A DNA stretch of 64,000 bases from Solirubrobacterales bacterium (lineage in GTDB: Bacteria > Actinomycetota > Thermoleophilia > Solirubrobacterales > JACPNS01): positions 124 through 64,123 of the forward strand of contig JACPNS010000011.1 in the NCBI GenBank assembly GCA_016185345.1. The letters run 5' to 3'. A program made the translations under genes and the position numbers. Of this stretch, positions 180 through 62,233 are shown in pieces (the stretch's first letter is position 1; each line of letters opens with the position of its first letter). The notes beneath the pieces are model-generated. The model did not search any database and had not been told where the DNA came from. It worked only from the letters and a program-made list of their open reading frames with translations.

Positions 180-2102
180 TCAGCGCGTCTTGTTGAGCTG
201 ATGGAAGATCTGCCTGCCGACCTTCTGCGGCAGTCCGGGAACGGACTCCAGCTCGTCGCGCGTTGCCGCCACCACGCCGTCCGGCGAACCGAAGTGTTCG
301 AGCAGCAGCTTCTTGCGCGCCGGGCCGATCCCGGCGAGGTCGTCAAAGACCGACGCAGTCATCGCCTTGTCGCGTCGTTCGCGGTGGAAAGTGATCGCAA
401 AGCGGTGGGCCTCGTCGCGGATCCGCTGCATGATCTTGAGGCCGGGGTCGTCCTTGTCAAGGATCACCGGGTGCTTCTTTCCGGGCACGAAGATCTCTTC
501 CTCGCGCTTCGCGAGCGAAACCACCGGCACGCCTTCCTTGCGGAACTCCTCGAGCTCTTTGATCGCGCTCGAGAGCTGGCCCTTGCCGCCGTCGATCACG
601 ATCAGGCCGGGAAGGGACGCGAATGACTCGTCGTAGTCGTCGTCGTGCGGGGATATCTCCCTCTGCTTCAGGTACTGCGCCATGCGGCGGCGAAGGACCT
701 CGCCCATCGAGGCGAAGTCGTCCTGCTTTCCATCGAGCTCCTTGACCTTGAAGCGCCGGTAGTCGGCCTTGTGCGGGTTGCCGTCGCGGAACACGACCAT
801 CGAGGCGACGACGTTGGTCGGGCCGAGGTTCGAGATGTCAAAGCACTCGATGCGGACGGGCGGGATCTCAAGGTCCAGCGCCTGGCGCAGATTCTCGAGC
901 CCCTCGCGGCGCGACCTTCGCGCGCGTTCGGTGCGGCTCCTCTCGCGCTCGAGCGCCAGCTTGGCGTTGCGCTCGGCGAGCTCGTAGAGCTTGCGCTTCT
1001 CTCCGCGCTCGGCGGATCGAAGCTCGACGCTGGAGCCTCGCCTCGACTTGAGCAGGCCCGTGATTGCATCGACGTCCACGCTTGATTCGAATTCGCGCGC
1101 AACGATCACCTGCGGCGGCACGGCACCGCCAGATGTGTAGTACTGCGCGATGAACTCCTCGGTGACCTCGTTGTCACTGACCTCGCCAATGTTGTCGAGG
1201 TGGAAGCTCTTGCGGTCGGCGAGGATCCCGTCGCGGACTTGGAAGACCTGGGCGTTTGCCTCGCTGCCATCTGTCGCGATGGCGACGAGGTCAACCATCC
1301 CTAGTGAGGACGTGTCGAGGCGATTGCGATCGATCGAGTCCTTGACCGCAGCGATGCGGTTCCTGTACACGGCCGCCTCTTCATACTCGCGGCGCTCTGC
1401 CGCGTCCTTCATGCGCTCATCCAGCTCTGCTTGGACCTCGCGGAAGTTGCCGGCGAGAAAGCCTTCGATCCGCCCGATGTTCGCCCGGTAGTCCTCTTTT
1501 GAGATGTAATCGACGCACGGCGCCTGACAGCGCTTGATGAAGTAGTCAAGGCATGGATTGCCCGACTGGCGACCGGGCTGCGGCCCCTCGCATGTGCGGT
1601 ACTGGAAGATCTTGCCGAGCAGTTCGATCAGGTTGCGTGCGCGGCGCGCATCGCTGTAGGGCCCGAAATACTTGCGCCCGTGTTTGTGCTTTTCGCGCGT
1701 GAAGTAGACGCGTGGGTAGTCCTCGTCGAGCGAGATCGCGATGAACGGGTATGTCTTGTCGTCACGCATCAGCACGTTGAAGCGCGGGCGGTACTGGCGG
1801 ATGAACTGCTGCTCGGTGATCAACGCCTCTGAGGGGTCGCGCGTGACGACGCACTCGATCCGCTCTGTCATGGCGATCATCTCAACTGCCTTGCCTTCGG
1901 GCGTAGAGAAGTGCGAGCTGACGCGGCTTTTGATCGAAGTGGCCTTGCCGACGTAGACGACCGTGCCTTCGGCGTCGTGGAAGAGGTAGACGCCGGGCTG
2001 ATCGGGCAACTCGCGGCGCTCGTCGATCAGCTTGCCCCGAAAGGGGTTGTGGCGCTGCGGCTTCTTCTTGGGCTGCTTCTTCTGGCTGGCTGCTTCGGGC
2101 AC
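180..2102 (-). CDS. uvrC: Excinuclease ABC subunit C
   Basis: 640-aa ORF with a GIY-YIG N-terminus (PGVYLFHDAEGTVVYVGKA...), a central UvrC region and a C-terminal helix-hairpin-helix (LAGIGPARKKLLLEHFGS). Confidence 0.95.
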   Translation of the reverse strand: MPEAASQKKQPKKKPQRHNPFRGKLIDERRELPDQPGVYLFHDAEGTVVYVGKATSIKSRVSSHFSTPEGKAVEMIAMTERIECVVTRDPSEALITEQQFIRQYRPRFNVLMRDDKTYPFIAISLDEDYPRVYFTREKHKHGRKYFGPYSDARRARNLIELLGKIFQYRTCEGPQPGRQSGNPCLDYFIKRCQAPCVDYISKEDYRANIGRIEGFLAGNFREVQAELDERMKDAAERREYEEAAVYRNRIAAVKDSIDRNRLDTSSLGMVDLVAIATDGSEANAQVFQVRDGILADRKSFHLDNIGEVSDNEVTEEFIAQYYTSGGAVPPQVIVAREFESSVDVDAITGLLKSRRGSSVELRSAERGEKRKLYELAERNAKLALERERSRTERARRSRREGLENLRQALDLEIPPVRIECFDISNLGPTNVVASMVVFRDGNPHKADYRRFKVKELDGKQDDFASMGEVLRRRMAQYLKQREISPHDDDYDESFASLPGLIVIDGGKGQLSSAIKELEEFRKEGVPVVSLAKREEEIFVPGKKHPVILDKDDPGLKIMQRIRDEAHRFAITFHRERRDKAMTASVFDDLAGIGPARKKLLLEHFGSPDGVVAATRDELESVPGLPQKVGRQIFHQLNKTR

Positions 2103-2139
2103 TCATGGAGATTAAGGCTCAGCCCTCCTGGCGAAGCCG

Positions 2140-3516
2140 TCAGCGGACCAGAGCGACGGTCGCGGTGAATCCCATGCCTGCGAAAGCAGGGTCGTCCAGC
2201 GACGCTCCGGCACCCTTCATCAGGCCAATGATCTTCGCGACGTAGGCCTGAGTTTCTGAGTACGGCGGAATTCCGTCGTATTTCTGAATCGCTTCCGGGC
2301 CAGCGTTGTAGGCGGCCAGCCCCTCTGGAATCGATTCGAACTGCTTGATCAGCTGAGACATCAACTTTGCTTGCGCGAAAATCGATGCACGCGGATCGAA
2401 TGGGTCGGTCAGCCCCATCGAACGAGCGGTGCCCGGCACGAACTGCGCGATGCCTTGGGCGCCCGCAGGCGATACTGAGTTCGCATTGAAATCCGATTCC
2501 GCCTTCAGCTGAGCGGCGAGCAGCACAGGCTGGACATTGAATCGCTGGGCCGCGTCGAGGATCGTCTGGCGATACTGCGAGGGGACCCAACTCGGGAGGC
2601 CGTCCGCGCCCACGTGGCTACCGCCCTTCACCTCACGCGAGCCCGCGCCGTACTGAGCTGGCACGTCGCGCGGGTTGGCTCCGAAGCCAAAATGCCAAGG
2701 CTCCCATGCGTACCTTTTGATGAAGCCAAACCGCCTCGCGTTTGCCGCGAGCCAGCCGTATGCAGCCGGTGGCCCGAGATCGATTTCCGTTCCATACCGG
2801 TGAAGTGAAGTACCTGGCGGCGCGACCCACTTGGGATCTGGACGCGCGGAAAACAACCGCGCCTGCTCAGCATCCGAGCGAAAAGCACTGTTGATTGCCA
2901 GCGAGATGCCCGCGCCGCGAGCGGCCGCCGCAAGGCGGTCGAACGCCATCGCCACGTTGGGACGCAGCGCCTTGCCCTGGCGATATGCGAGCGGACCGCC
3001 GTAGCCGCCGCCGCTGCCATTGGCCGGCATCGCCCCGGGCATCGTCGCAAATGTGAAGCGAAGCTCGGCAGTCGCCTTCGCTCGGATATTCACGCGGCGC
3101 TGCTTTTCTGTGCCGGCAATTGGCACGTCGTGCCGCCGCGAGGTCGAGATCGTCACGGTCGTCGGTGAGAGACCGAGACCGAAGCTGACGCGCTCAACCC
3201 GTCCGATCGCCTCGTTCGCCACGGCGACGCGAACGGCCGCCTCGCGTGCGCGCAGCCGGTACGCCGCCGGAGACAGATAGCGAGGGTTCGGCGTGCCACC
3301 GGGTAAGACCGGTGGTTCCAACGTGCGGGAATAGTCCTTCGCCATTCTTCCCGCCGCCGCCGCCGCGGCGATGTCCGCCGTGCGCTGGTCCTGACCGCGC
3401 GCTGCTAGCGCTCCCCCGTACTGCGCGAACAGCGCCGCTCCGAGCAACGCGAGAATCGAGCCGGCGACCAACGGGATGGTCGCCTGTCCGTGCTGAGAGG
3501 CAACTCGGCGCGTCAC
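2140..3516 (-). CDS. TadG-like N-terminal anchor fused to an M15/VanY-type D,D-carboxypeptidase and an SLT lytic transglycosylase
   Basis: 458 aa. The N-terminus HGQATIPLVAGSILALLGAALF...RTADIAAAAAAG resembles the TadG/TadE-type anchor. The VanY motifs are SAFRSDAEQARLF, PPGTSLHRYGTEIDL and EPWHFGF. The SLT motif is AQLKAESDFNANSVSPAGAQGIAQF. A GTGA start/stop overlap joins it to the upstream ORF at 3513-3516. Confidence 0.75.
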   Translation of the reverse strand: MTRRVASQHGQATIPLVAGSILALLGAALFAQYGGALAARGQDQRTADIAAAAAAGRMAKDYSRTLEPPVLPGGTPNPRYLSPAAYRLRAREAAVRVAVANEAIGRVERVSFGLGLSPTTVTISTSRRHDVPIAGTEKQRRVNIRAKATAELRFTFATMPGAMPANGSGGGYGGPLAYRQGKALRPNVAMAFDRLAAAARGAGISLAINSAFRSDAEQARLFSARPDPKWVAPPGTSLHRYGTEIDLGPPAAYGWLAANARRFGFIKRYAWEPWHFGFGANPRDVPAQYGAGSREVKGGSHVGADGLPSWVPSQYRQTILDAAQRFNVQPVLLAAQLKAESDFNANSVSPAGAQGIAQFVPGTARSMGLTDPFDPRASIFAQAKLMSQLIKQFESIPEGLAAYNAGPEAIQKYDGIPPYSETQAYVAKIIGLMKGAGASLDDPAFAGMGFTATVALVR

Positions 3517-3986
3517 GAAGGCTGTGTGCGCGGGGAGAGGAGTTGATCGATGAGCTGATCGGCTCCTCGAGCGAGCTCACGCCTGCGCCGCCACGACGGC
3601 GCCGCGCCGGCCGCCGAAGCCATCAGCAGGATCGAGCATTTGGACTCGTCCACTTCGCCGACGCCGACGGTTTCTAACCGGGCGCCTTGGAAGCGCTCGC
3701 CGAGTTCCCGTGTGTAGAGGCCGCAGTAATTGAGGTCGCTCTGGTCGTCGACGAACAGCCACACCGACTCAAATTCCGCATCGATCGGAGCCAGACCCAC
3801 CCCGTCGAGCCGCACGTAGGACGCAGTTACCGGCGCCGCTCGCTCTACGAGCGCGGTCAGATCGGCGATCCGGCGTAGACGCCCACAAGCGTCCACCACA
3901 AGCAGCCGACTTGCTTGCGCGAGAACCGGTCGATCCAACGTACGCGGAACCCGCTCGACGAATAGTTCAGCGATGGCCTCGATCAT
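3513..3986 (-). CDS. Hypothetical protein (157 aa) in the tadE-like operon
   Basis: Internal ATG at 3986 of ORF 3513..4250 forms an ATGA overlap with the stop of the upstream gene (3983-3985). I see no transmembrane segment and no recognisable motif. The longer ORF-track version would overlap the upstream gene by about 270 nt. Confidence 0.55.
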   Translation of the reverse strand: MIEAIAELFVERVPRTLDRPVLAQASRLLVVDACGRLRRIADLTALVERAAPVTASYVRLDGVGLAPIDAEFESVWLFVDDQSDLNYCGLYTRELGERFQGARLETVGVGEVDESKCSILLMASAAGAAPSWRRRRELARGADQLIDQLLSPRTQPS

Positions 3987-4309
3987 TCTTTCGTGTACCT
4001 CGCCTCCGAAGTCACGACGAGCAATCCCGAGAGAGCCGGGAAGATCGAACGCGGCTTCAGCCGCACGCGAACGCGTTGCCCGCGAGTCGCGACCTCGATC
4101 CGCGTAGTCGACCAACCTGGCGCCGCTGACCGCGCGGCCTTCATTGGGTCGTTCCCGAGCTGACCGGCCAGCGCTCCGGCGTGCGAGGCATTGCCCGCGG
4201 CCACAAAGTTCGCGCCCGCCACGAGTCCCTGCAGGCCAAGGAGGCAGCAAAGAATCACGATCGGCGTCATCATCACGACTTCGACCTGCGATTGACCGCG
4301 CTGGCTCAT
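3983..4309 (-). CDS. TadE-like pseudopilin
   Basis: 108 aa. The N-terminus MSQRGQSQVEVVMMTPIVILCCLLGL is a short leader, G-Q, an acidic residue and then a hydrophobic helix (TadE/Flp-type class III signal). It has an ATGA overlap with the upstream ORF at 4306-4309. Confidence 0.7.
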   Translation of the reverse strand: MSQRGQSQVEVVMMTPIVILCCLLGLQGLVAGANFVAAGNASHAGALAGQLGNDPMKAARSAAPGWSTTRIEVATRGQRVRVRLKPRSIFPALSGLLVVTSEARYTKE

Positions 4310-4728
4310 GGATCCATCCGAGAGCTCGACGAAATACGCGGCCCGCCCGCCGCGCCGAGTGCGGCCCTGAACGGGGCCACCAACGGCACGCGCGCGCTCA
4401 CGGTCACAACGCCAGCCTTGGAAGCGACAATCCGCCTCGATGCCCTCGGCGAAGTCGCCAACAGCGAATCGGCCAGCTCATGCGCTCTCTTGTCCCCTGG
4501 CCTCGCTTCGCCCCGCTGATCGGCCACAAACCGCTCCCGAGCCGCCAGGCGTGCGACTTCGGCAACCTTCCACCACGTATGCCCAGCAACTACGAGCTGC
4601 CAGCCCGCGAGCATCACCAAGACGACGAGCGGCACCGTAAGCACCAGCTCAACACTGGCCTGCCCACGCGGATTCAGGATGGATCGCCACATGAGGAAGA
4701 TGCTGCCGAGCCGCGAGTAACGGTTCAA
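4306..4728 (-). CDS. TadE-like pseudopilin (start ambiguous: TTG 4728 or ATG 4692)
   Basis: ...MWRSILNPRGQASVELVLTVPLVVLVMLAGWQLV matches the TadE N-terminal pattern. ATG 4692 would give a 9-10 residue leader, as is typical for TadV substrates. Confidence 0.7.
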   Translation of the reverse strand: MNRYSRLGSIFLMWRSILNPRGQASVELVLTVPLVVLVMLAGWQLVVAGHTWWKVAEVARLAARERFVADQRGEARPGDKRAHELADSLLATSPRASRRIVASKAGVVTVSARVPLVAPFRAALGAAGGPRISSSSRMDP

Positions 4729-4732
4729 GACC
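4717..4732 (-). repeat. Copy 1 of the exact 16-nt box (sense GGTCTTGAACCGTTAC; plus strand GTAACGGTTCAAGACC)
   Basis: Identical 16-mers lie at 4717-4732, 31950-31965 and 54217-54232. Segments 4712-4740 and 54212-54240 match at 27 of 29 positions. Confidence 0.9.
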
Positions 4733-4783
4733 GAAACGCGAAGAGTTAAGAAAAAGTCAGTTACAAATCAGGAGCGGCGCAGC

Positions 4784-6247
4784 TTATGAGCGGCGCAGCG
4801 ACCCGAGCATTGGGTTCGCCGACTTGGCGCCGCGACGACGACCACCCTTGGCCGCGTACATCGCAACGTCCGCGCGGTGCACGAGCTCGTCGGGCGTGGC
4901 GTCGCTGTCGAGCTTGGCTGCCGCACCGATCGAGAGCGATACGGACATTCCCGAGGCCTCAACGCGAAGGCGCTGCACGAGGTGCTGAAGACCCTCTTCA
5001 TCTGTATCCGGACACACGACGACAAACTCGTCACCACCGAGGCGCGCGGTGAAGTCCGAACCACGCGCAGTCGCCGTGATCGCGGCCGCGACCTCACGAA
5101 GCAGACGGTCGCCGGCGACATGACCGTGCGTGTCGTTGAAAGATTTGAAGTGGTCGAGGTCCACGAAGACCATTCCCAGCGGCCGGCCGTGGCGCAGAGC
5201 GCGCTGCCACTCGATTGCCATCTGGCGGTCGAAGCCCTCGCGATTGGCCAATCCAGTCAGGTGGTCAAGCTGGGCGACACGAGCGACTGCCGTCGCGCGG
5301 CGGCGCTCGCGGAATGAGACTACGGCGAGGATCGAGGTCGCGAAGATCAAAAGCAGGAGCGCCGCGCGGAAGGCGAGCGGGATGCCGTCGACTGCGCGGG
5401 CGATCGTTGTCTGCTTGCGCGGGTTGTCGGAAGCGCTCTTGTCTTTTGAGCTGTTGGAACTCGAACCACCGCTTGAACCTGAGGACTTCTCGCTTCCGGC
5501 GGTCGCCGCCGCGACTGCCACGCCAACGCCAATGCCAGCTGCTGGCCTTGCGCTCGCCGCGATCGACGCCACGGCAGATCCTGCCGGTGAGCCGCTGTTT
5601 CCGCCAGAGCCGGAGTCCGAATCAGGGCCAACACCCTTCGTACCCGAAGATCCGTCGATCTTGCCGCGCGAACTCTGTTTCTTGCCGTTGTTGCTGGACT
5701 TTTTATCGGTGACCACGCCACCAGAGGGCGCGACTGGCTTGCTCTCTTCGGGAGTGGGCGTGCTGGGGCTCGGTGGCGGTGTGCCGTCAGAGCCAGATGG
5801 TGTTCCAGGGTCTTCGCTGTTTCCGGCGCCGCCGTCAGTGCCGGGATTTGAGGGGCTTCCGTTGCCGCCGCCAGGGCCAGGTTCATTTCCACCGCCCGAT
5901 CCACCCGGAGGCGGAGTCCCGTTGCCCGCATCTGTGCCGGGGCCTGTGCCTGAACCCGTGCCCGAGCCTGTGCCCGAATCTGTACCGGGGCTTGGCGGGG
6001 TCGTTGGCGCACCGCCGCCGTTCCCGCCATCGGAACCGGACCCGCCGCCATGCCCCTTGCTGTGACCGTTGCCGCGACTCTTACTGTGACCGACCCCCTT
6101 GCCGGTACCGCCATAACCGAACGCGTAGGCAGCGATCGCGAGCGGTCCGAGCACGAGCGCTGCACACATAAGCAGCACCGGCAAAAACTGCGAACTGCGG
6201 CGCAGGCTTGATCGTTTCGAGCGGAAGATGTTCCGGTACTCGGACAA
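4784..6247 (-). CDS. Membrane diguanylate cyclase (GGDEF) with a long low-complexity extracytoplasmic region
   Basis: C-terminal GGDEF domain (LTGLANREGFDRQ...VFVDLDHFKSFNDTHGHVAGD...RLGGDEFVVV). Two predicted transmembrane helices (about residues 21-43 and 289-312) flank a Gly/Ser/Pro/Thr/Asp-rich tract. Confidence 0.9.
   Translation of the reverse strand: MSEYRNIFRSKRSSLRRSSQFLPVLLMCAALVLGPLAIAAYAFGYGGTGKGVGHSKSRGNGHSKGHGGGSGSDGGNGGGAPTTPPSPGTDSGTGSGTGSGTGPGTDAGNGTPPPGGSGGGNEPGPGGGNGSPSNPGTDGGAGNSEDPGTPSGSDGTPPPSPSTPTPEESKPVAPSGGVVTDKKSSNNGKKQSSRGKIDGSSGTKGVGPDSDSGSGGNSGSPAGSAVASIAASARPAAGIGVGVAVAAATAGSEKSSGSSGGSSSNSSKDKSASDNPRKQTTIARAVDGIPLAFRAALLLLIFATSILAVVSFRERRRATAVARVAQLDHLTGLANREGFDRQMAIEWQRALRHGRPLGMVFVDLDHFKSFNDTHGHVAGDRLLREVAAAITATARGSDFTARLGGDEFVVVCPDTDEEGLQHLVQRLRVEASGMSVSLSIGAAAKLDSDATPDELVHRADVAMYAAKGGRRRGAKSANPMLGSLRRS
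5931..5990 (-). repeat. Five imperfect 12-nt tandem units inside the GGDEF gene, encoding PGTDSGTGSGTGSGTGPGTD
   Basis: Plus-strand units are tctgtgccgggg / cctgtgcctgaa / cccgtgcccgag / cctgtgcccgaa / tctgtaccgggg. Confidence 0.8.
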
Positions 6248-6348
6248 GGTGACGACAAAGTAACCGTGCCTCCGGTCGGAAACACAAGCAATTCCCCTGC
6301 AAGCGTCAGAAAAACGCAGGGGCGCTTGCAGCTGCGCGATTGAGCCGG

Positions 6349-6768
6349 CTAAACGACCCAGCGGCGCGACTCGCGCCAGACCCAGTAGACAGCGCCGCCG
6401 CAGGCAGCGACGATCAGAATCACAAGGACGATCCCGCCGTTCCAGAGCCCACGGAACCGTTCGATCGCAACGATCGACAGCATGGCCAGCGCAACTGCGC
6501 CGTACACAATCCCTCGGTCGCGCTCAGAAAGTTCTGAGAGCCATTCTGCCTGGGAGCGGTACAGCCGCACAGCGCCGAAGGCGATCAGCGTGAGGAAGAT
6601 CGCGTTGATCGCGTTGTTCACGAGCTCGACGAAGCTTCCGCCGCTGGGAAGCACGGTGATCAGCAACGCGACGAGCGCGATGATGCCGATGCCGATCCAT
6701 GTTCTGCGCGGGTTGTTCACAGTGAGCAGCCTACGCGCAGCGAAGGCGTCAGGCGTCGAACGTTCCAC
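6349..6768 (-). CDS. Small integral membrane protein (about 4 transmembrane helices), unknown function
   Basis: 139 aa with hydrophobic segments (WIGIGIIALVALLITVL, AINAIFLTLIAFGAV, IVYGAVALAMLSIVAI, GIVLVILIVAACGGAVYWVW). It overlaps the end of the DUF47 gene by 20 nt. Confidence 0.6.
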   Translation of the reverse strand: MERSTPDAFAARRLLTVNNPRRTWIGIGIIALVALLITVLPSGGSFVELVNNAINAIFLTLIAFGAVRLYRSQAEWLSELSERDRGIVYGAVALAMLSIVAIERFRGLWNGGIVLVILIVAACGGAVYWVWRESRRWVV

Positions 6769-23175: not shown

Positions 23176-24480
23176 TTATCTCACGAAACCCGGTCGGGCT
23201 GTCCGTTCCTTTTTTCGACGCAGTAAGAAGGTCGCGACCATGCTGATTCCAAGCGCCAGAAGCACCCAGGGAAGAATCAGTCCGAGGGCGTGCAACATGA
23301 CTGCGGTGACCGGTGGAGCGGGCACTCCCTCGCCCAGAGAGACCGGCACGCTGGCCACCTGCTTGCCTCCGCGAAGGACGATGGCGTCGCCGACGATCGA
23401 CCCGGCAGGACGCGGCCCCTTGATCTGCCTGGGAGCGATCAGTCGCAGCTCGACCTGCTCGCCGTTGCGCGCCGCGAACGAATAATCGCGGCGTGGATAG
23501 ACCTTGGCTTTGATGTCCTGGAATTCGACCGGGAGCGCGTAGACCGATTGCTTCTTGCGCAGCGGGGCGACCGGCTTGTAGAAGGCGCGCCCATACCGGA
23601 GCAGTGCTGCCGAGTCGCTCTCGCGCGCGGCCTCAGTTCGGTCGCCGGTCACTACGGATATGACCCTGGCGTCGAGCTTTTCCGCCGCGCCCACGAGCAA
23701 ATAGCCGGCGGCAATGGTGTAGCCAGTCTTGACCCCGATCGCCCACGGGTACTTGCCGATCAATGGATTGCGGTTGGAGATTCTGCGAACCGTCGCACCC
23801 GAGCGCAGTGTGAGTCTGGACTTGTCGATGACACTCGAGAGGCGCGGCACGGTCAACGCGTACCGACCAAGCGTTGCGAGGTCGTTGGCAGTTGAGAAGT
23901 TGCCGGAGGCATCGAGCCCGATCGGGTTCGAGAATCGCGTGCGAGTGAGGCCGAGTGACCTCGCGCGACGGTTCATCGCAGCGACGAATGCGGATCTCGA
24001 CGATGCGGTGCCAGCGGCGAGCGTGTCGGCAGCGTCGTTTCCGCTTTCGAGCATCAAGCCCTTGATCAGATCCTGCGCGCTCATGCTTTCGCCGGGCTTG
24101 AGGCCCAGCAGCGATTCGCCCACGCCGGCGCGGTATCTGGTCGCGGTGAGCAGCTCGTTCGGGGTCGTACGTGAGATCGCGACCAGCGCCGTCATGATCT
24201 TGGTCGTGCTGGCGATCAGGCGGCGCTTCTTTGTGTCGCGCCCCCACATGTGCCTGCCGGTCTGGGCATCGAGCACGATCCCCGTCTCGGCGAGGATCCC
24301 GCTCGGTGCGCGCGGCGTGGGCACCTTGACGGTCATCGTGTTGACTGATCGGAGAACGTTCTCGTCGGCGCGCGCAGTTGCCGCAGGCGCGAGAACCAAG
24401 GCGGAGACTGCGAGCACGAGCGCGCGTGCCGAGGGCGCCACGCGCGAAGACGAAGCGAGCCTCGAGGTGCTGCGCCTCAC
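23176..24480 (-). CDS. D-alanyl-D-alanine carboxypeptidase (peptidase S11, PBP5-like)
   Basis: Signal peptide, then SxxK (IASTTKIMTA), SxN (ESGNDAA) and KTG (GVKTGYT), plus a C-terminal transmembrane anchor. Confidence 0.85.
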   Translation of the reverse strand: MRRSTSRLASSSRVAPSARALVLAVSALVLAPAATARADENVLRSVNTMTVKVPTPRAPSGILAETGIVLDAQTGRHMWGRDTKKRRLIASTTKIMTALVAISRTTPNELLTATRYRAGVGESLLGLKPGESMSAQDLIKGLMLESGNDAADTLAAGTASSRSAFVAAMNRRARSLGLTRTRFSNPIGLDASGNFSTANDLATLGRYALTVPRLSSVIDKSRLTLRSGATVRRISNRNPLIGKYPWAIGVKTGYTIAAGYLLVGAAEKLDARVISVVTGDRTEAARESDSAALLRYGRAFYKPVAPLRKKQSVYALPVEFQDIKAKVYPRRDYSFAARNGEQVELRLIAPRQIKGPRPAGSIVGDAIVLRGGKQVASVPVSLGEGVPAPPVTAVMLHALGLILPWVLLALGISMVATFLLRRKKERTARPGFVR

Positions 24481-31672: not shown

Positions 31673-31894
31673 TCAGAGAATCTTGCCGAGCGCTCCCGTG
31701 ATGCCCTGGATCAGCTTGCTGCCGATCTTGGTGGCGAAGCCGAGTCCGTCGAGGCCGGTGAGGATCAACCCGATGCCCGTACCGAGCACGACGGTCAGGC
31801 CGACGTACTCGACTGTGGCCTGGCCACGCTGGTCCTTGGCGGCGTAGTACCGATTAGTGGCCCAGGCGGCCGCGCGTAGTGAAAGCTGCTGCAT
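31673..31894 (-). CDS. Flp/Fap-type prepilin-like protein
   Basis: 73 aa. ...KDQRGQATVEYVGLTVVLGTGIGLILTGL is the G/xxxxEY class III signal motif followed by a hydrophobic helix. An AGGAG Shine-Dalgarno sequence lies upstream of the ATG. Confidence 0.6.
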   Translation of the reverse strand: MQQLSLRAAAWATNRYYAAKDQRGQATVEYVGLTVVLGTGIGLILTGLDGLGFATKIGSKLIQGITGALGKIL

Positions 31895-41624: not shown

Positions 41625-42602
41625 CTACCAGAAGAGCGTCGACTCGAGAGAGCCGTCCCCCTCTAGTTCTTCGATCGTCTTCGTATAGACGCCCGAGGAG
41701 AGGTATTTCCAGCCGTCGTCGGCGATCACGAAGACGACGTCGCCCTCATCAAACGCTTCTGCGGCCTTGACGGCGACTGAGCAGATTGCTCCGCTTGATA
41801 CTCCGGCAAAGATGCCCTCTTCTTCGAGCAGCTTCTTCGTCCAGACAACTGCGTCGCGGTTGTTGACGATGATCTTTCGGTCGATCAGGCTGAGGTCGAT
41901 GATCGGCGGGATGAAGCCGTCGGCCAGCGACCGGAGCCCCTGCACGAGCTCGCCCTGGAGCGGCTCGGAGGCGACGATCTGCGTGCCGGTGCCCTGGTCT
42001 TTGAAATACCGGGCGTGGCCCATCAGCGTGCCGCCGGTACCGAGGCCCGCAACGAACGCGGCGATGTTGCCGAGCTCCTCGTGAATCTCGGGTGCGGTGC
42101 CGTTGTAGTGGGCGAGCGGGTTTGCCTCGTTGCCGTACTGGTACGGCATGTAGTAATCCGGGTTTTTCTCGGAAATGTCGAGTGCCATCTCGACGGCACC
42201 GTTCGACCCCTTGGCGCCCTCGCTGTAGATGATCTCGGCGCCGTACATCTTCAGGAGCTGGGTGCGCTCCTCGGTGACATTGTCGGGCATCACGACCTTG
42301 AGCTTGTAGCCCTTGCGACTGGCGATCATCGCCATCGCGATACCGGTGTTGCCGGAGGTCGGCTCAAACAATGTGGCTCCGGGCGCGATCGCGCCCTTGG
42401 CCTCGGCATCCTCGATCAAAGACTTGGCGACGCGGTCCTTGACGGAACCGGTCGGGTTGTGCGACTCGAGCTTTGCCCAGAGGCGCACACCGGGCTTGGG
42501 CGAGAGCCGCTTCAGTTCGACCAGCGGCGTGTGACCGATCGATTCGACGATGTCGGCGTACTTGCCGCCGCCCACACGATTCTTTTCCCCGATGACGTCC
42601 AT
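41625..42602 (-). CDS. cysM: Cysteine synthase (PLP-dependent; CysM-type by context)
   Basis: IGHTPLVEL...NPTGSVKDRVA...TSGNTG. It is clustered with mec, cysO and moeZ. Confidence 0.88.
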   Translation of the reverse strand: MDVIGEKNRVGGGKYADIVESIGHTPLVELKRLSPKPGVRLWAKLESHNPTGSVKDRVAKSLIEDAEAKGAIAPGATLFEPTSGNTGIAMAMIASRKGYKLKVVMPDNVTEERTQLLKMYGAEIIYSEGAKGSNGAVEMALDISEKNPDYYMPYQYGNEANPLAHYNGTAPEIHEELGNIAAFVAGLGTGGTLMGHARYFKDQGTGTQIVASEPLQGELVQGLRSLADGFIPPIIDLSLIDRKIIVNNRDAVVWTKKLLEEEGIFAGVSSGAICSVAVKAAEAFDEGDVVFVIADDGWKYLSSGVYTKTIEELEGDGSLESTLFW

Positions 42603-42655
42603 TACTTCAAAAACTATAGTCTCCGATCTCCTAATCGGTGTTTACAACTTTCATC

Positions 42656-43051
42656 ATGAAATTCACCCAATCCCAGATCGACGAAATGGTCGCCCACGCC
42701 CGCGACGACGTGCCCAATGAGTGCTGCGGCGTGGTCAGCTCCAAAGACGGTGTCGCGGAGCAGGTCCATCGCGCAGTAAACGCAGCTGCCAGCCCGCTGC
42801 GTTACGAAATCGACTCGGCGGACTTCCTGCGCATCTACAACCTGATCGACGACGCGGATCAGGAGGTCGGCGCGATCTACCACTCGCACACCCGCAGCGC
42901 GGCCTATCCGTCACAGACCGACATCAACCTCGCACTCTGGCCCGACGCCCTTTACATCATCGTTTCGCTCGCCGCCGACGAGGCCGATGTGAAGGCCTTC
43001 GCGATTGTCGACCGGAAGGTCGCTGAAGTCACACTCGAAATCACCGCTTAG
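42656..43051 (+). CDS. mec: JAMM/MPN+ metalloprotease (Mec-like)
   Basis: ECCGVV...YHSHTRSAAYPSQTD is the E...HxHx7Sx2D JAMM motif. Start chosen at ATG 42656 (MKFTQSQIDEM). Confidence 0.85.
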   Translation: MKFTQSQIDEMVAHARDDVPNECCGVVSSKDGVAEQVHRAVNAAASPLRYEIDSADFLRIYNLIDDADQEVGAIYHSHTRSAAYPSQTDINLALWPDALYIIVSLAADEADVKAFAIVDRKVAEVTLEITA

Positions 43052-43107
43052 TCACATGGAAGAACCGGGGTGCATCTCTTGCCTCACGGCGGTAGAGTGA
43101 AGCTGCG

Positions 43108-43656
43108 ATGCCGTTTTTCGAGGACAACACGTGTCCCTTCTGCGGCGCGCGCTTCCAACCCGGCGCTTCCGCATGCCCGGCATGCGACTTGCCTTTGCTC
43201 GGGGAAGATGGCTCGCGTCCGCCAGAACGAGAAAGCACGCCCTTTGACGGCGCGTCGCTATTTGACGGCGCCTTTCCCGACGAAGACTTTCTGCCCGAGC
43301 GCAGGTTCGATCCTCCGCTTGCCACCGAGGCGCCAACCCGCGAAGGCGGAGACTCAATGCGCTGCGTCGTCGTTGCGATGAACCGCTCCGAGGCCGACAT
43401 GCTCGAGGACATGCTTCGCGCCGAGGGCGTGCCCTGCATGGTTCGCTCGATCGGCACCGAGATCTACTCGATGACGAAGAATCGCTGCGAAGTGCTCGTT
43501 CCCGAGTACGCACTGCCGACCGCGCGTGAACTGTTGCGCATCAAGACACCTGAACCTCAGGAGCCGGCGACTCCCCCGGTTGCGCTCGCCCTGTTGATCT
43601 TCGCCGGCATCGTCGCGACGATTCTCTCCGTGGCCTTCGCGCTTACTTACCTCTAG
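43108..43656 (+). CDS. Zinc-ribbon protein with a DUF2007-like domain and a C-terminal transmembrane anchor
   Basis: N-terminal CPFCGARFQPGASACPAC, central MRCVVVAMNRSEADMLEDMLRAEGVPCMV, and C-terminal VALALLIFAGIVATILSVAFAL. Its stop overlaps the cysO stop in a CTAG palindrome. Confidence 0.55.
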   Translation: MPFFEDNTCPFCGARFQPGASACPACDLPLLGEDGSRPPERESTPFDGASLFDGAFPDEDFLPERRFDPPLATEAPTREGGDSMRCVVVAMNRSEADMLEDMLRAEGVPCMVRSIGTEIYSMTKNRCEVLVPEYALPTARELLRIKTPEPQEPATPPVALALLIFAGIVATILSVAFALTYL

Positions 43657-43931
43657 AGCGACCCACCAGCCATTGCCGGCAGGATCATCACCGTGTCTGC
43701 GTCCTCTACGGACGTGTCCAGCCCTTCAAGAACGCGAACATCCTCGTTGTTCAGGTAGACGTTGACGTAGCGATTGAGATCCCCATCGGGACCAAAGATC
43801 TGGCCCGAGGTGTCCGGGTAGCTCTCGATCATGCTGCGCAGGACGTCACCGACGTTTCTGCCGGCTGCACTGACTTCTTTTTCGCCGTCGGTCGCTGAGC
43901 GCAGAACGGGCGGAATCTTCACGGTGGCCAT
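43653..43931 (-). CDS. cysO: ThiS/MoaD-family sulfur carrier (CysO-like) ending in GG-SL
   Basis: ATG 43931 gives MATVKIPPVLRSATDGEKEV...DADTVMILPAMAGGSL*. It has a beta-grasp-sized length of 92 aa. Confidence 0.8.
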   Translation of the reverse strand: MATVKIPPVLRSATDGEKEVSAAGRNVGDVLRSMIESYPDTSGQIFGPDGDLNRYVNVYLNNEDVRVLEGLDTSVEDADTVMILPAMAGGSL

Positions 43932-43966
43932 AGAGGCGGGGATGCTACCGAATCGTCCGGTAACAC

Positions 43967-45163
43967 TCAGCCCGTTACTACTCCGCCGCAAAAGGCTTCG
44001 TAGTCGGGGAAGACGCCAAGTTCTTCGTCGCTGATCTCGTCCGGCTCGCGAGAGCAGATCGGGCATTCCGGATCGCGGCGGATCTTGAGGTTGGTGAACT
44101 CCTCCGCGAGTGCGTCGTAGAGCATAAGGCGGCCGACCAGTGGCTCGCCGATTCCGAGGATCAGCTTGAGGACTTCAGTTGCCTGGAGCAGACCCATGGT
44201 GCCCGGAAGGACCCCGAGGACGCCGTTCTCGCCGCAGCTGGGCGCGAGCTCTGCTGGCGGCGGAACCGGGTAGAGGCAGCGGTAGCAAGGGCCCTCGTAG
44301 GGCTTGAACACTGTGAGTTGGCCGTCGAAGGCCAGGATCGAAGCGCTGACGACCGGGATGCGCAGGCGCACAGTGGCGTCATTGAGCAGATACCTGGTCG
44401 GGAAGTTGTCAACGCCGTCGACGATGATGTCGTAGCCCTCGATGATGTCCAGGATGTTGTCGGCGTTGATGCGCGTGTTGTAGGTCACGACGTTCACATC
44501 GGGGTTGAGCTTCTCGATCGTCTTCTTTGCAGATTCGACCTTCGGCTCGCCGATCGTTTCGGTCGAGTGGATGACCTGGCGCTGGAGGTTTGATGCGTCG
44601 ACGACGTCGTCGTCGACAATGCCGAGTTGGCCCACGCCGGCCGCAGCCAGATAGAGCGCGACCGGGGCGCCCAGTCCACCTGCGCCAAGCAGCAGGACCT
44701 TGCTCTGGAGAAGGTTCTGCTGACCCTCGGGGCCGACTTCCGGCAGCAGCATGTGGCGCGAGTAGCGGATGCGCTGCGCATCGGAGTACTGGAAGGGGAT
44801 CTCGATCGGGAAATTGCGCTGTTTCCACAGCGTGATTCCGCCGTTCATCGACTCGACGTTCGTGTAGCCGAGTTCTTCGATCAAAGTCTTCGCAGCGATC
44901 GCGCTGCGGTTGCCGGACTGGCAGTAGAGGATCACTCGCTGGCTGAGATCCGGGGCGGCGCGACCGATGCGCTGCTCGAGGTATCCACGCGGAACGTGCT
45001 TGGCGCCAGCGATGTGGGATTCGTCCCACTCCTGCTGCTCGCGCACGTCTACGACGACGGCCGAAGGCTCGTCGCTCGCAAGGATGTCGTGGACCTCCGT
45101 CGGGTCAACCTCGGGGATCTGTTCCTTGATCTTGCTGAGAAAGTCTTGGTAATTGTTAGCCAT
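43967..45163 (-). CDS. moeZ: Adenylyltransferase/sulfurtransferase (MoeZ/MoeB-ThiF) with an N-terminal rhodanese domain
   Basis: Rhodanese active-site loop ILYCQSGNRS at the N-terminus, then RYSRHMLLPEVG...LLLGAGGLGAPVALYLAAAGVG, the NLQRQ motif, and CYRC...SCGENGVLG zinc/active-site cysteines. Confidence 0.88.
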   Translation of the reverse strand: MANNYQDFLSKIKEQIPEVDPTEVHDILASDEPSAVVVDVREQQEWDESHIAGAKHVPRGYLEQRIGRAAPDLSQRVILYCQSGNRSAIAAKTLIEELGYTNVESMNGGITLWKQRNFPIEIPFQYSDAQRIRYSRHMLLPEVGPEGQQNLLQSKVLLLGAGGLGAPVALYLAAAGVGQLGIVDDDVVDASNLQRQVIHSTETIGEPKVESAKKTIEKLNPDVNVVTYNTRINADNILDIIEGYDIIVDGVDNFPTRYLLNDATVRLRIPVVSASILAFDGQLTVFKPYEGPCYRCLYPVPPPAELAPSCGENGVLGVLPGTMGLLQATEVLKLILGIGEPLVGRLMLYDALAEEFTNLKIRRDPECPICSREPDEISDEELGVFPDYEAFCGGVVTG

Positions 45164-60817: not shown

Positions 60818-61627
60818 GTGCGCGTCACAGATCGGGAAATCATCGTTCCGGACCTGCCGGAAAACGTCACCTGGGTCAACTTCGAACCAGAGTCGATCGA
60901 CGACCTCCTGCGCGTTGGTCCGGTGCTGATCGAGTTCTGGGACTTCGCGCGGATCAACTCGCTGCGCACGCTGCCGTACATGGAGGAGTGGACCAGGCGC
61001 TACGCCTCATCTGGCGCAACCGTGCTTGGCGTTCATTCGTCGGGCTTCTCGTTCGCAAAGGACGAGACAGTGGTCCGCGATGCGATCAAGCGCCTCGGCG
61101 TGCAGCACCCTGTGATCCTCGACCCCGAGTTCCAGCTCTGGCAAGCATTCGAGAACCGCGGCTGGCCCGCGCGCTACCTGTTCGGGCGCCACGGAATGCT
61201 CAAGTACTTCCACTACGGCGAGGGTGACTACGACGAGGCCGAGCTGACGCTCCAGGAAGTGCTGCGCGAACTTGACCCGGAGATCGAGCTTGAGCCGATC
61301 ATGGATCCCCTGCGACCCGAAGACGCCCCCGGCGTTGAGCTGCACCCTCAGACGGCTGACCTGCAACTCCCCGACGGCGCCGACCGCCTGAAGGTGAAGG
61401 GCACCTGGGGAAGCGCCGAGGACTACATCCAGTCCGAGAAGGCCGGCAACAAGGTGAGTGTGAAGTGCGATGCCGGCTCGGCGTGGGCAGTTCTTTCAGG
61501 CGAGGGCGTTGAGTACCCCGGTCTGCACGAAGTGCCGATCGAAGACGGCCGTGCCTCGGTCGAAGCAGCTGGACCGGGCCTGCGCGTCCACGGCTTTCAG
61601 TTCACGCCGAAGCCGCCGATCGCGTAA
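60818..61627 (+). CDS. DipZ-C-terminal-like thioredoxin-fold protein lacking the CxxC motif
   Basis: GTG 60818. PVLIEFWDFARINSLRTLPY occupies the place of the ...FW..xCxxC... redox motif. ...GVHSSGFSFAKDE...WPARYLF...FHYGEGDY. The upstream part of the ORF-track version overlaps the preceding gene. Confidence 0.6.
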   Translation: MRVTDREIIVPDLPENVTWVNFEPESIDDLLRVGPVLIEFWDFARINSLRTLPYMEEWTRRYASSGATVLGVHSSGFSFAKDETVVRDAIKRLGVQHPVILDPEFQLWQAFENRGWPARYLFGRHGMLKYFHYGEGDYDEAELTLQEVLRELDPEIELEPIMDPLRPEDAPGVELHPQTADLQLPDGADRLKVKGTWGSAEDYIQSEKAGNKVSVKCDAGSAWAVLSGEGVEYPGLHEVPIEDGRASVEAAGPGLRVHGFQFTPKPPIA

Positions 61628-61970
61628 ACAGCGCGATCCGCGCGGCCACCTCGTCGCGCACCGCATCCGAGGCGCGCGCAATTGGCGACACAAGGCGCTC
61701 TTGGCTGACCGCGCGAATTTGGTATGGCTCGACGTAGCCGACGCGAACCCCGTTGCCAGCTCCGCCCTCGGAACTGCGCGGCAGTTCGATACGCACCGCG
61801 GCGTCACGCGGCGTGGTTGTGATCGGGCAGACGATCGCCAACTTTGCAGGCGCTTGGTTGATCTGATCGACGGAAACAACCAGGACCGGACGCGTTTTCG
61901 CCTGCTCGGAACCGATCACCGGATCCAGCCGTGCCCACCACACCTCGCCCTGCACCGCATGGCGAGCCAC
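61602..61970 (-). CDS. mazF: MazF/PemK-family type II toxin (mRNA interferase)
   Basis: GEVWWARLDPVIGSEQAKTRPVLVVS...AIVCPITTT is the PemK signature. Confidence 0.85.
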   Translation of the reverse strand: MARHAVQGEVWWARLDPVIGSEQAKTRPVLVVSVDQINQAPAKLAIVCPITTTPRDAAVRIELPRSSEGGAGNGVRVGYVEPYQIRAVSQERLVSPIARASDAVRDEVAARIALFTRSAASA

Positions 61971-61978
61971 TTCCGGCG

Positions 61979-62233
61979 CTACCAGTCCGAGAAGTCGTCG
62001 TTGGGATTCAAGCCGTCGGCTGCAACCGCATCGAGCGCCTGCGTGTCAGCGGCGATCTCGTCCGCGTCTACGGAGAGCGAAGTCGCGAGCGCAGCGAGCA
62101 AACTCGCCTCACGCGCCTCGGAAACCAGCTGATCGAGCGTGTCGATCGACGTAGAACCCGTCGATGCGGCAAGCTCTTTCAGTGCATCACGAGTCTCGGC
62201 GCGAGCGCGAATCATCACTGTGTGACTGTGCAT
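61979..62233 (-). CDS. Cognate antitoxin (small acidic-tailed DNA-binding protein)
   Basis: 84 aa, located 8 nt upstream of mazF. It has an N-terminal basic/strand-helix region and an acidic C-terminus (NPNDDFSDW). Confidence 0.65.
   Translation of the reverse strand: MHSHTVMIRARAETRDALKELAASTGSTSIDTLDQLVSEAREASLLAALATSLSVDADEIAADTQALDAVAADGLNPNDDFSDW

Follow-up and report, generated by a model that had tools for sequence, protein, structure and literature searches.

A predicted TadG-like pilin module joined to two peptidoglycan hydrolase domains and encoded with TadE-like prepilins in Thermoleophilia

Results

The gene cluster

A chain of four open reading frames (ORFs) on the minus strand, 4728/4692..2140, was examined in a 64,000-nt stretch of DNA (hereafter the window) from a soil Solirubrobacterales bacterium of the class Thermoleophilia (GenBank assembly GCA_016185345.1, contig JACPNS010000011.1, positions 124-64,123 of the forward strand). 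As read from the ORF list and the sequence, the chain encodes two small proteins with TadE-type N-termini (ORF1 and ORF2), a cytoplasmic protein (ORF3), and a large, putatively TadG-like protein that carries two peptidoglycan-active enzyme domains (ORF4). Successive genes share four nucleotides: ATGA at 4309-4306 between ORF1 and ORF2, ATGA at 3986-3983 between ORF2 and ORF3, and GTGA at 3516-3513 between ORF3 and ORF4. The four ORFs and three overlaps described in an original prediction for this DNA are all present, and every peptide string quoted there is found in the ORF translations. The overlapping stop and start codons, which are what points to co-transcription, suggest that ORF1 to ORF4 are translationally coupled. 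GC content across the operon is 0.63-0.66, the same as in the rest of the window, and GC at the third codon position (GC3) is gene-like at 0.74-0.77. Coordinates of the operon, of the ORF4 domains, and of the other features discussed are collected in Table 1.

Table 1. Features of the window that bear on the operon (residue numbers are those of the encoded protein)
Feature	Position	Strand	Description
ORF1	4306..4692	-	TadE-type minor prepilin 1; 128 residues from ATG 4692 (longest ORF, from TTG 4728, 140 residues)
ORF2	3983..4309	-	TadE/TadF-type minor prepilin 2; 108 residues
ORF3	3513..3986	-	157 residues, cytoplasmic, no transmembrane segment
ORF4	2140..3516	-	458 residues; TadG-like modular pilin (predicted) fused to VanY/LdcB-type and SLT enzymes
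Pilin-like module	3022..3516	-	ORF4 residues 1-165
VanY/LdcB-type LAS zinc peptidase (MEROPS M15B-like)	2668..3024	-	ORF4 residues ~165-283
Family-1 (SLT/GH23) lytic transglycosylase	2209..2583	-	ORF4 residues ~312-436
C-terminal beta-strand V-x-L-V-R/E	2149..2169	-	ORF4 residues 450-456
GGDEF diguanylate cyclase	4784..6247	-	Pfam GGDEF, 135 bits; 461 residues in NCBI annotation
Small polytopic membrane protein	6349..6768	-	123-139 residues; cluster membership uncertain
Candidate Flp-type major prepilin	31673..31894	-	73 residues, 49 in the mature part; 27 kb from the operon

ORF4 combines a pilin-like module with two hydrolase domains

ORF4 is identical (100%) to a protein of a metagenome-assembled genome (MAG) that is named "transglycosylase SLT domain-containing protein" at NCBI (Solirubrobacterales, GCA_021731605.1). 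An AlphaFold2 model of ORF4 has an overall predicted local distance difference test score (pLDDT) of 81. The protein opens with the ten-residue leader MTRRVASQHG followed by Q-A-T-I-P, without a Glu at position +5; in an alignment of 71 sequences, conservation of G10, Q11 and A12 is 90% or higher and position +5 is never Glu. GspK and similar tip-most minor pilins are not known to carry Glu5 either. The N-terminal module is modelled as a helix of 54 residues (13-66), a second helix (83-100) and three strands (107-112, 120-132 and 139-156), with pLDDT mostly 80-98. Eight of ten sampled relatives of the module match the Pfam family Tad (PF13400) and four of these pass its gathering threshold; many relatives of ORF4 at 55-64% identity also carry a precomputed PF13400 match. 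An exhaustive HMMER search with residues 1-165 returned only 250 cluster representatives among 1.84 billion. The N-terminus had been predicted to be TadG-like: the match is sub-threshold in this protein itself, and the assignment is supported by the relatives that pass the Tad cut-off and by the predicted pilin-like fold. As modelled, the ORF4 N-terminus is a TadG-like pilin module with a class-III-type signal, an alpha-1 helix, and a small sheet.

The two enzyme domains that follow are supported more directly. Residues 183-278 match Pfam VanY (PF02557) with 58 bits, over the cut-off, and sequence matches in the PDB include VanY (5HNM), LdcB (4MPH and 4OX3) and VanXY (4MUR), the ORF4 segment SLHRYGTEID aligning with SEHQLGLAVD of VanY 5HNM. 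Residues R213, H239, D246, E272 and H275 are invariant in the 71 sequences and correspond to the zinc-binding residues (His-x6-Asp plus another His), the catalytic Glu (ExxH), and the substrate Arg. This domain is best described as a VanY/LdcB-type peptidase, its sequence fitting D,D-carboxypeptidase, L,D-carboxypeptidase, and endopeptidase activity alike. Residues 319-415 match Pfam SLT (PF01464) with 69.6 bits, again over the cut-off, and the best Foldseek matches of ORF4 in the PDB are the lytic transglycosylases Slt70, MltF, MltD, MltC and MltE (E-values down to 3e-6, probability 1.00). The SLT domain, with a goose-lysozyme-like fold, is modelled with pLDDT above 90; the catalytic pair E340-S341 as well as G352-Q358 (GAQGIAQ), N404-G406 and Y425 are invariant in the same alignment, while in the AYNAG motif A402 and Y403 show 90% conservation or more. 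Both modules had been predicted, and both look catalytically intact. The C-terminal strand is predicted with pLDDT of about 94; V454 and L456 in it are at least 90% conserved in the 71 sequences, L456 being invariant only in an alignment of 12 sequences.

Relatives of the SLT domain are found beyond chromosomes. It is 40-48% identical to plasmid-borne SLT-domain proteins, the closest of which are annotated as SLT-domain, DD-metalloendopeptidase-family or NlpC/P60 proteins; these annotations suggest that the plasmid relatives are machine-associated, VirB1-like hydrolases. PHROG families of lytic tail, lytic tail fibre, and tape-measure proteins match the SLT and VanY parts of ORF4 with E-values of 1e-28 to 8e-13.

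Distribution of the fusion and of the cluster

A protein search with ORF4 returned thousands of matches, and the best 120 (55-100% identity over near full length, with the VanY and SLT architecture) belong to Solirubrobacterales/Thermoleophilaceae. In a genome scan using one genome per species, relatives of ORF4 were found in 245 species; the best 80 of these are all Thermoleophilia, save one bin labelled Chloroflexia. The closed chromosomes OY970353.1 and OY970298.1 also encode ORF4 homologues. The pilin fusion with VanY and SLT thus appears to be confined to Thermoleophilia, as far as can be judged from sequence matches. Mean column identity of ORF4 in the 71-sequence alignment is 65%. The fusion is widely auto-annotated as "transglycosylase SLT domain-containing protein", and no characterisation was found in the literature.

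We considered whether the N-terminal module also carries other cargo, as relatives with Tad alone, Tad plus VanY, or Tad plus SLT would suggest. These proved to be frameshifted, Arg/Pro-rich mistranslations, and because the variant architectures are frameshift artefacts, the three-part architecture is fixed. Database relatives such as P0250, P0360, P0288, P0279, P0352 and P0262 turn into Arg/Pro-rich nonsense in mid-protein, an example of error-prone assemblies mimicking variant architectures.

Linkage was counted over the 70 loci whose sequence reaches 3 kb or more upstream of the ORF4 homologue. Both TadE paralogues lie within 3 kb upstream in 48 of the 70 loci, and in another six they lie at 3-10 kb, after insertions. 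Of the four-gene order, the TadE pair and ORF4 stay together in those 48 loci, and the position of ORF3 is occupied by other proteins in distant genomes. A phage or plasmid origin of the cluster was rejected, as ORF1-3 have no PHROG match, no plasmid carries the three-part fusion (no plasmid record covers 80% or more of ORF4), base composition is native, and the genes around the cluster are housekeeping genes.

ORF1 and ORF2 are TadE-type prepilins by sequence

ORF1 has a leader of ten residues (MWRSILNPRG) followed by Q-A-S-V-E and a hydrophobic helix, giving the motif PRG/QASVE (the slash stands for the predicted cleavage site), and it passes the Pfam TadE profile (PF07811; 30.1 bits, gathering threshold 22.9). 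A Met 9-10 residues before the Gly, and the G/QxxVE motif, are kept in its homologues. The start of ORF1 had been placed at TTG 4728; since the homologues start at ATG 4692 and not there, ATG 4692 is most likely the true start. ORF2 has a leader of five residues (MSQRG) followed by Q-S-Q-V-E and a hydrophobic helix (QRG/QSQVE). Among ten ORF2 orthologues, four match Pfam TadE, one above the gathering threshold (24.8 bits) and three more at 15-22 bits.

Because both paralogues are too divergent for tblastn, they were recovered from 81 loci by a motif scan together with hidden Markov models (HMMs) built from their C-terminal parts only. The C-terminal models recovered the ORF1 family in 57 of 81 loci and the ORF2 family in 59 of 81; position +5 is Glu in 41 or more of 54 ORF1-type homologues and in 51 or more of 56 ORF2-type ones. 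Gly(-1) and Glu(+5) are kept in homologues of both types even when these are found without using the motif. Gly(-1) and Glu(+5) serve prepilin cleavage and filament assembly, not simple membrane anchoring. Of the two TadE-type N-termini in the original prediction, that of ORF1 is confirmed by its profile score; that of ORF2 is sub-threshold by profile; and the Gly(-1)/Glu(+5) motif is conserved across about 55 species for both. On these motifs and matches, ORF1 and ORF2 are both to be classed as TadE/TadF-like prepilins.

A candidate Flp-type prepilin elsewhere in the window

A small protein overlooked in the earlier reading of the window may be the major pilin (Table 1). Its leader ends in DQRG and its mature part begins with QATVEYVGLTVVLGTGIG. 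It has 78 homologues, to one of which JGI gives the name "Flp pilus assembly pilin Flp"; its exact sequence is absent from the database proteins returned, the best match being 99% identical. In 18 aligned homologues the leader is variable, while GQATVEYVGL (G/QATVEY) never changes and the mature part is for the most part invariant, which is the pattern expected of an Flp-type prepilin and makes the protein a candidate for one. The gene always lies between those of a GT4 glycosyltransferase and rph, including in five further contigs. One homologue weakly matches DUF4244 (E 0.07). The G/QA motif of the candidate resembles the motifs of ORF1, ORF2 and ORF4, which suggests that one peptidase could serve all four.

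ORF3

ORF3 had been described as having no transmembrane segment and no recognisable motif; this agrees with its giving no match in Pfam, NCBIfam or PHROG, and structure prediction now adds a fold. The AlphaFold2 model (pLDDT 84.6) is a three-layer alpha/beta structure with a flavodoxin/receiver-like fold, and Foldseek against the PDB yields generic matches only (receiver domains, flavodoxins, B12-binding and SIS domains; best E about 3e-3, TM-score 0.4-0.5). Just 29 homologues, at 49-100% identity, were found in 5.8 billion proteins. In the same genomes identity is 48-61% for ORF3 as against 82-84% for ORF4, so ORF3 evolves much faster.

In distant Thermoleophilia the position of ORF3 is taken by unrelated-looking proteins of 200-260 residues, which share only an N-terminal "W/L-x-V-E-P" motif, one group also having a P-loop-like stretch. 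Proteins of 230-260 residues at loci L020 (9258-9986), L056 (9067-9846), L083 (9198-9896) and others contain "WLVEP" and "VVAVxGLxxxCGATTVAR", the latter without the P-loop lysine. These longer proteins have no Pfam match and no sequence match in the PDB. The idea that the ORF3 position holds a degenerate TadZ/ParA-like protein gained no support and is kept as a possible resemblance only: Pfam, a PDB profile search, and hhalign comparisons with MinD and with the ORF3 family were all non-significant (the probability against Escherichia coli MinD, a sequence entered by hand, was 0.2%), and ORF3 itself has no match to ParA, MinD or TadZ in Pfam, in NCBIfam, or by predicted fold.

Genomic neighbourhood and search for Tad machine genes

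The window was annotated with Pfam over about 1-13.5 kb and, through concatenated ORF translations, over 14-64 kb. Since no T2SSE, T2SSF, Peptidase_A24 or CpaE/TadZ family is found among its predicted genes, the original prediction that the 64 kb contain no tadA, tadB, tadC, tadZ or prepilin peptidase gene is correct. A Walker A scan of the window and of 83 loci yields ABC ATPases only. Supplements of survey papers were searched for Thermoleophilia genera with a Tad machine, and nothing was found in them.

Downstream of ORF4, on the same strand, lie uvrC, rapZ, a glycosyltransferase gene, and gap-pgk-tpi. The gap from the ORF4 stop to the uvrC start is 37 nt (2103-2139, same strand) and holds no terminator-like site; the pilin operon and uvrC-rapZ may share a transcript. 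A scan of 1900-6500 gave no promoter-like sites, and terminator-like sites no more than in shuffled controls. On the upstream side are the GGDEF gene, the small membrane protein gene, a PhoU-like gene, a response regulator gene, and pst phosphate transporter genes. The NCBI annotation of the matching MAG contig (GCA_021731605.1, JAKFXA010000006.1) omits ORF1, leaving a gap at its place (locus L001, 8733-9208).

The GGDEF gene stands directly upstream of the operon on the same strand, as predicted; a general link does not hold, as the gene is found there only in the closest relatives (L004-L016). Its product is a possible regulator of the operon and not a conserved part of the cluster. The protein has a stretch of about 250 residues of low complexity, rich in Gly, Ser, Pro and Thr, between the N-terminal hydrophobic and the second membrane segments; relatives have similar and highly variable repeats, for example the GSGSGS runs in L012. 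The small membrane protein gene is usually directly upstream of the TadE genes in most loci, the GGDEF gene intervening in the closest clade alone. Its product matches nothing in Pfam or PHROG; a role as a short TadV-type peptidase was considered and rejected, since neither a conserved pair of Asp residues nor a GxGD motif marks it as a prepilin peptidase.

The remaining 50 kb or so of the window is of housekeeping character (guaA, IMPDH-like, pfkB, S11 carboxypeptidase, tldD/pmbA, rdgB, rph and nadB), with further genes for hydantoinases, a cysteine synthase and a JAB protein, moeZ, suf genes, ispH, and a MazF pair. The S11 D-alanyl-D-alanine carboxypeptidase (23176-24480, minus strand) has a C-terminal membrane segment and is wall-active and unrelated to ORF4 by sequence; in relatives a LysM protein is encoded beside it (L085, 17999-18577). 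The cysteine synthase (PALP), JAB/MPN protein, and ThiF-rhodanese (MoeZ-like) genes are grouped at 41625-45163, presumably resembling the actinobacterial CysO/Mec/CysM sulfur-carrier cysteine pathway. A MazF/PemK-type toxin of 122 residues (61602-62233, minus strand) is preceded by an ORF of 84 residues, probably its antitoxin.

Discussion

Proposed function and mechanism

On the strength of the chained genes, the TadE matches and conserved prepilin motifs, the predicted pilin-like fold and intact catalytic residues of ORF4, its linkage to both TadE genes in 48 of 70 loci, and the Flp candidate, we hypothesize that the operon encodes the minor-pilin "tip" set of a Tad-type (type IVc) pilus, in which the TadG-like subunit bears a peptidoglycan-cutting head; we hold this reading to be evenly poised between right and wrong. 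More tentative, and in our judgement short of an even chance, is the specific proposal that ORF4 is the tip subunit of an Flp filament: a "self-drilling" head by which the growing fibre would take a lytic transglycosylase and a stem-peptide peptidase through the thick wall.

Under this proposal, a TadV-type prepilin peptidase, encoded elsewhere, would cleave ORF1, ORF2, ORF4 and the Flp-like pilin directly behind their conserved Gly; ORF1, ORF2 and ORF4 would bundle their alpha-1 helices into a priming complex; and a TadABC machine, also encoded elsewhere, would extend this complex with Flp subunits. As the priming complex would be pushed outward first, both enzymes would come to stand at the leading end, where they would cut glycan strands and peptide stems locally and open a path through the cell's own thick Gram-positive-type wall, or through that of a neighbour. 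ORF3 may be an accessory factor, for instance a chaperone or a protein that connects to the platform. Each of these steps has a published precedent, as set out below. It is from the position and nature of the two enzymes that we infer a wall-breaching role for ORF4.

Evidence against a pilus and rival explanations

A number of results count against the assignment to a pilus. By profile, residues 10-56 of ORF4 reach 16 bits against Pfam Tad (gathering threshold 22.3) and its N-terminus stays under the cut-off of the NCBIfam Rv3654c family (TIGR03816) with an E-value of 8e-4; ORF2 reaches 13.4 bits against Pfam TadE, below the gathering threshold, and 23 bits (cut-off 40; E 6.4e-5, 97 of 101 model positions covered) against NCBIfam TadE_Rv3655c; and the Flp candidate has no match to the Pfam Flp profile (PF04964, Flp_Fap) at E-values up to 10. 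The peptidase region of ORF4 is modelled with low confidence (pLDDT 42-77, below 50 around residues 272-297). The machine genes are missing from the window, and in 80 relatives the 10 kb around the ORF4 homologue contain no Walker A motif of a TadA-type secretion ATPase. No TadE genes lie within 10 kb upstream of the ORF4 homologue in 16 of the 70 loci, mostly from Thermoleophilaceae. Finally, the neighbours of the cluster (uvrC, rapZ, gap-pgk-tpi) are housekeeping genes, the base composition of the cluster is ordinary, and its presence across the whole class would also fit a core role in wall maintenance.

Several of these points feed the main rival explanation, wall remodelling independent of any pilus, which we consider on the unlikely side. 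Here ORF4 would be a membrane-anchored housekeeping hydrolase acting in growth, septum splitting or turnover, with its pilin-like part serving only as an anchor and docking scaffold; ORF1 and ORF2 would be membrane partners or regulators, forming at most a short pseudopilus-like stub and no Flp filament. A fixed, class-wide architecture (245 species, thousands of homologues), a core-genome site with native base composition, the lack of a nearby Tad machine in any of the 80 genomes, the retention of ORF4 without adjacent TadE genes in the 16 loci above, and an N-terminal module never found with other cargo all speak for such a role. What it does not readily accommodate is the conservation of Gly(-1) and Glu(+5) in both TadE paralogues and of G-Q-A in ORF4, which is hard to explain for a plain anchor. 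The co-conserved Flp-type candidate has the same motif, and the plasmid-borne SLT relatives, as read from their annotations, would be machine-associated hydrolases.

Two further readings are less likely. That the complex rides on a Tad filament and its enzymes attack other cells (in killing, predation, fratricide, or DNA release and capture) instead of opening the wall of the producer strikes us as improbable. Myxococcus Kil/Tad pili do kill on contact by means of TadEFG-like tip complexes, whose genes form tip clusters of their own (PMC12075869); the enzyme domains of ORF4 resemble virion-associated lysins of phages (lytic tail and tape-measure proteins); and Tad pili reportedly support DNA uptake in some bacteria. 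Set against this, the cargo is single and invariant, its mean column identity showing no sign of the diversification that antagonistic effectors would be expected to undergo; nothing resembling an immunity gene is seen, as ORF3, being cytoplasmic, is badly placed to protect the wall; and the gene context is one of housekeeping. Least probable, and in our view only barely worth entertaining, is a relic of a decayed ancestral tad locus from which ORF4 survives as a free-standing hydrolase that ORF1-3 no longer work with: the local absence of machine genes, a fast-evolving ORF3 that is replaced in other lineages, linkage broken in a subclade, and an ORF1 missed by the annotation pipeline would suit it, but ORF1 and ORF2 are intact with motifs and lengths kept across dozens of species, the coupled overlaps are retained, and GC3 is gene-like.

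Comparison with known systems

The closest parallel to the proposed tip set is in Myxococcus xanthus, where TadE/F/G-like tip complexes are encoded in clusters apart from the machine genes, and the TadG-like subunit serves as the backbone and bears a variable domain at its C-terminus (PMC12075869). Like TadE/F/G and KilL/KilM/KilN of that species (Herrou et al. 2025, PMC12075869), the cluster described here has two small TadE-type prepilins and one large TadG-like protein; the small subunits carry G/xxxxE; the genes can lie away from those of the machine; and ORF4, like KilN/TadG, has an N-terminal hydrophobic helix and a beta domain followed by a C-terminal addition. The differences are that the addition in ORF4 is a pair of hydrolases (the words "peptidoglycan" and "hydrolase" do not occur in the main text of PMC12075869), that an extra cytoplasmic gene, ORF3, stands between the pilin genes, and that no tad or kil machine genes are seen in the 64-kb window or, in relatives, within 10 kb. 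As the host is a Gram-positive-type actinobacterium, no secretin is expected, unlike in the Kil/Tad system of Myxococcus.

Within the same phylum, the best NCBIfam matches of the ORF4 N-terminus and of ORF2 are the mycobacterial Rv3654c (TIGR03816, E 8e-4) and Rv3655c (NF041390, E 6e-5), although both matches fall under the curated cut-offs. Mycobacterial Rv3654c and Rv3655c are short, are not known to have enzyme domains, and are encoded directly downstream of tadZ-tadA-tadB-tadC-flp.

For the enzyme pair, the nearest counterparts are in conjugation. Gram-positive conjugation uses membrane-anchored hydrolases that unite glycan and peptide cutters, as in the VirB1-like TraG of pIP501 (SLT and CHAP), PrgK of pCF10 (LytM, muramidase and CHAP) and Orf14 of Tn916 (PMC12857230). 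These share with ORF4 the combination of an N-terminal anchor, a glycan cutter and a peptide cutter, and are dedicated to an envelope-spanning machine that crosses a thick wall. In ORF4, by contrast, the anchor is a pilin-like module with a class-III signal and not a plain transmembrane segment, the peptidase is of the LAS/VanY type and not CHAP, LytM or NlpC/P60, and the gene is chromosomal and core rather than on a mobile element.

Modular pilins are themselves widespread: among 264 architectures, peptidase modules of families S74 and M26 were recorded (Raynaud et al. 2021, PMC8179133), and the type IV pilins PilB (vWA) and PilC (lectin) of Streptococcus sanguinis (PMC8179133) are the comparison system for a modular ORF4. 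A peptidoglycan-hydrolase architecture is found neither in the main text of that survey nor in those of its supplements that were searched, and the survey, unlike the present case, was built on the IPR012902 signature of type IVa pilins and type II secretion, not on Tad-type pilins.

Wall hydrolases that assist other trans-envelope filaments offer a functional parallel. LytF promotes extrusion of the competence pilus in the monoderm S. sanguinis (PMC13192262), and specialised lytic transglycosylases of the FlgJ, VirB1, EtgA and BfpH type have been described (Koraimann 2003, as cited in PMC12307814). Their local opening of the wall for a filament is the purpose proposed for ORF4, but they are separate soluble or secreted proteins and not subunits on a pilin module. 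Virion-associated lysins of phages likewise place wall-cutting enzymes at the leading end of a filament, as proposed for ORF4; the locus studied here, unlike theirs, has no phage context (ORF1-3 lack PHROG matches), and penetration would be from the inside out rather than from the outside in.

Significance

Taken singly, the parts of the system are familiar: minor pilins of the TadE/F/G type, modular pilins, and wall hydrolases associated with machines; their combination was not found described in the literature. The original prediction had not recognised a pilin-anchored dual hydrolase as a described Tad component, and a structural paper of 2025 agrees, stating that Tad pili have in no report been linked to a peptidoglycan hydrolase or a lytic transglycosylase (PMC12307814). 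If the self-drilling proposal is true, no Tad system before it would have had a peptidoglycan-lytic component, and ORF4, which is conserved throughout the class Thermoleophilia, would also be the first subunit of a type IV filament to be a wall-degrading enzyme in its own right. Such a head could double as a contact weapon or as a tool for DNA release, and the recombinant enzyme part of ORF4 may serve as a bifunctional muralytic reagent. The host is an uncultured MAG, and the link to a pilus, if real, would be surprising and useful to specialists in type IV filaments.

The recent idea of TadG-type subunits as carriers of exchangeable heads, so far applied to adhesion and killing, would at the same time be extended to enzymology. 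To the question of how type IV filaments get through the thick peptidoglycan layer of single-membrane bacteria, a pilin-like dual wall-cutter, kept with two TadE-type partners across a deep-branching actinobacterial class, offers a concrete and testable answer, namely that the enzyme may ride on the priming complex.

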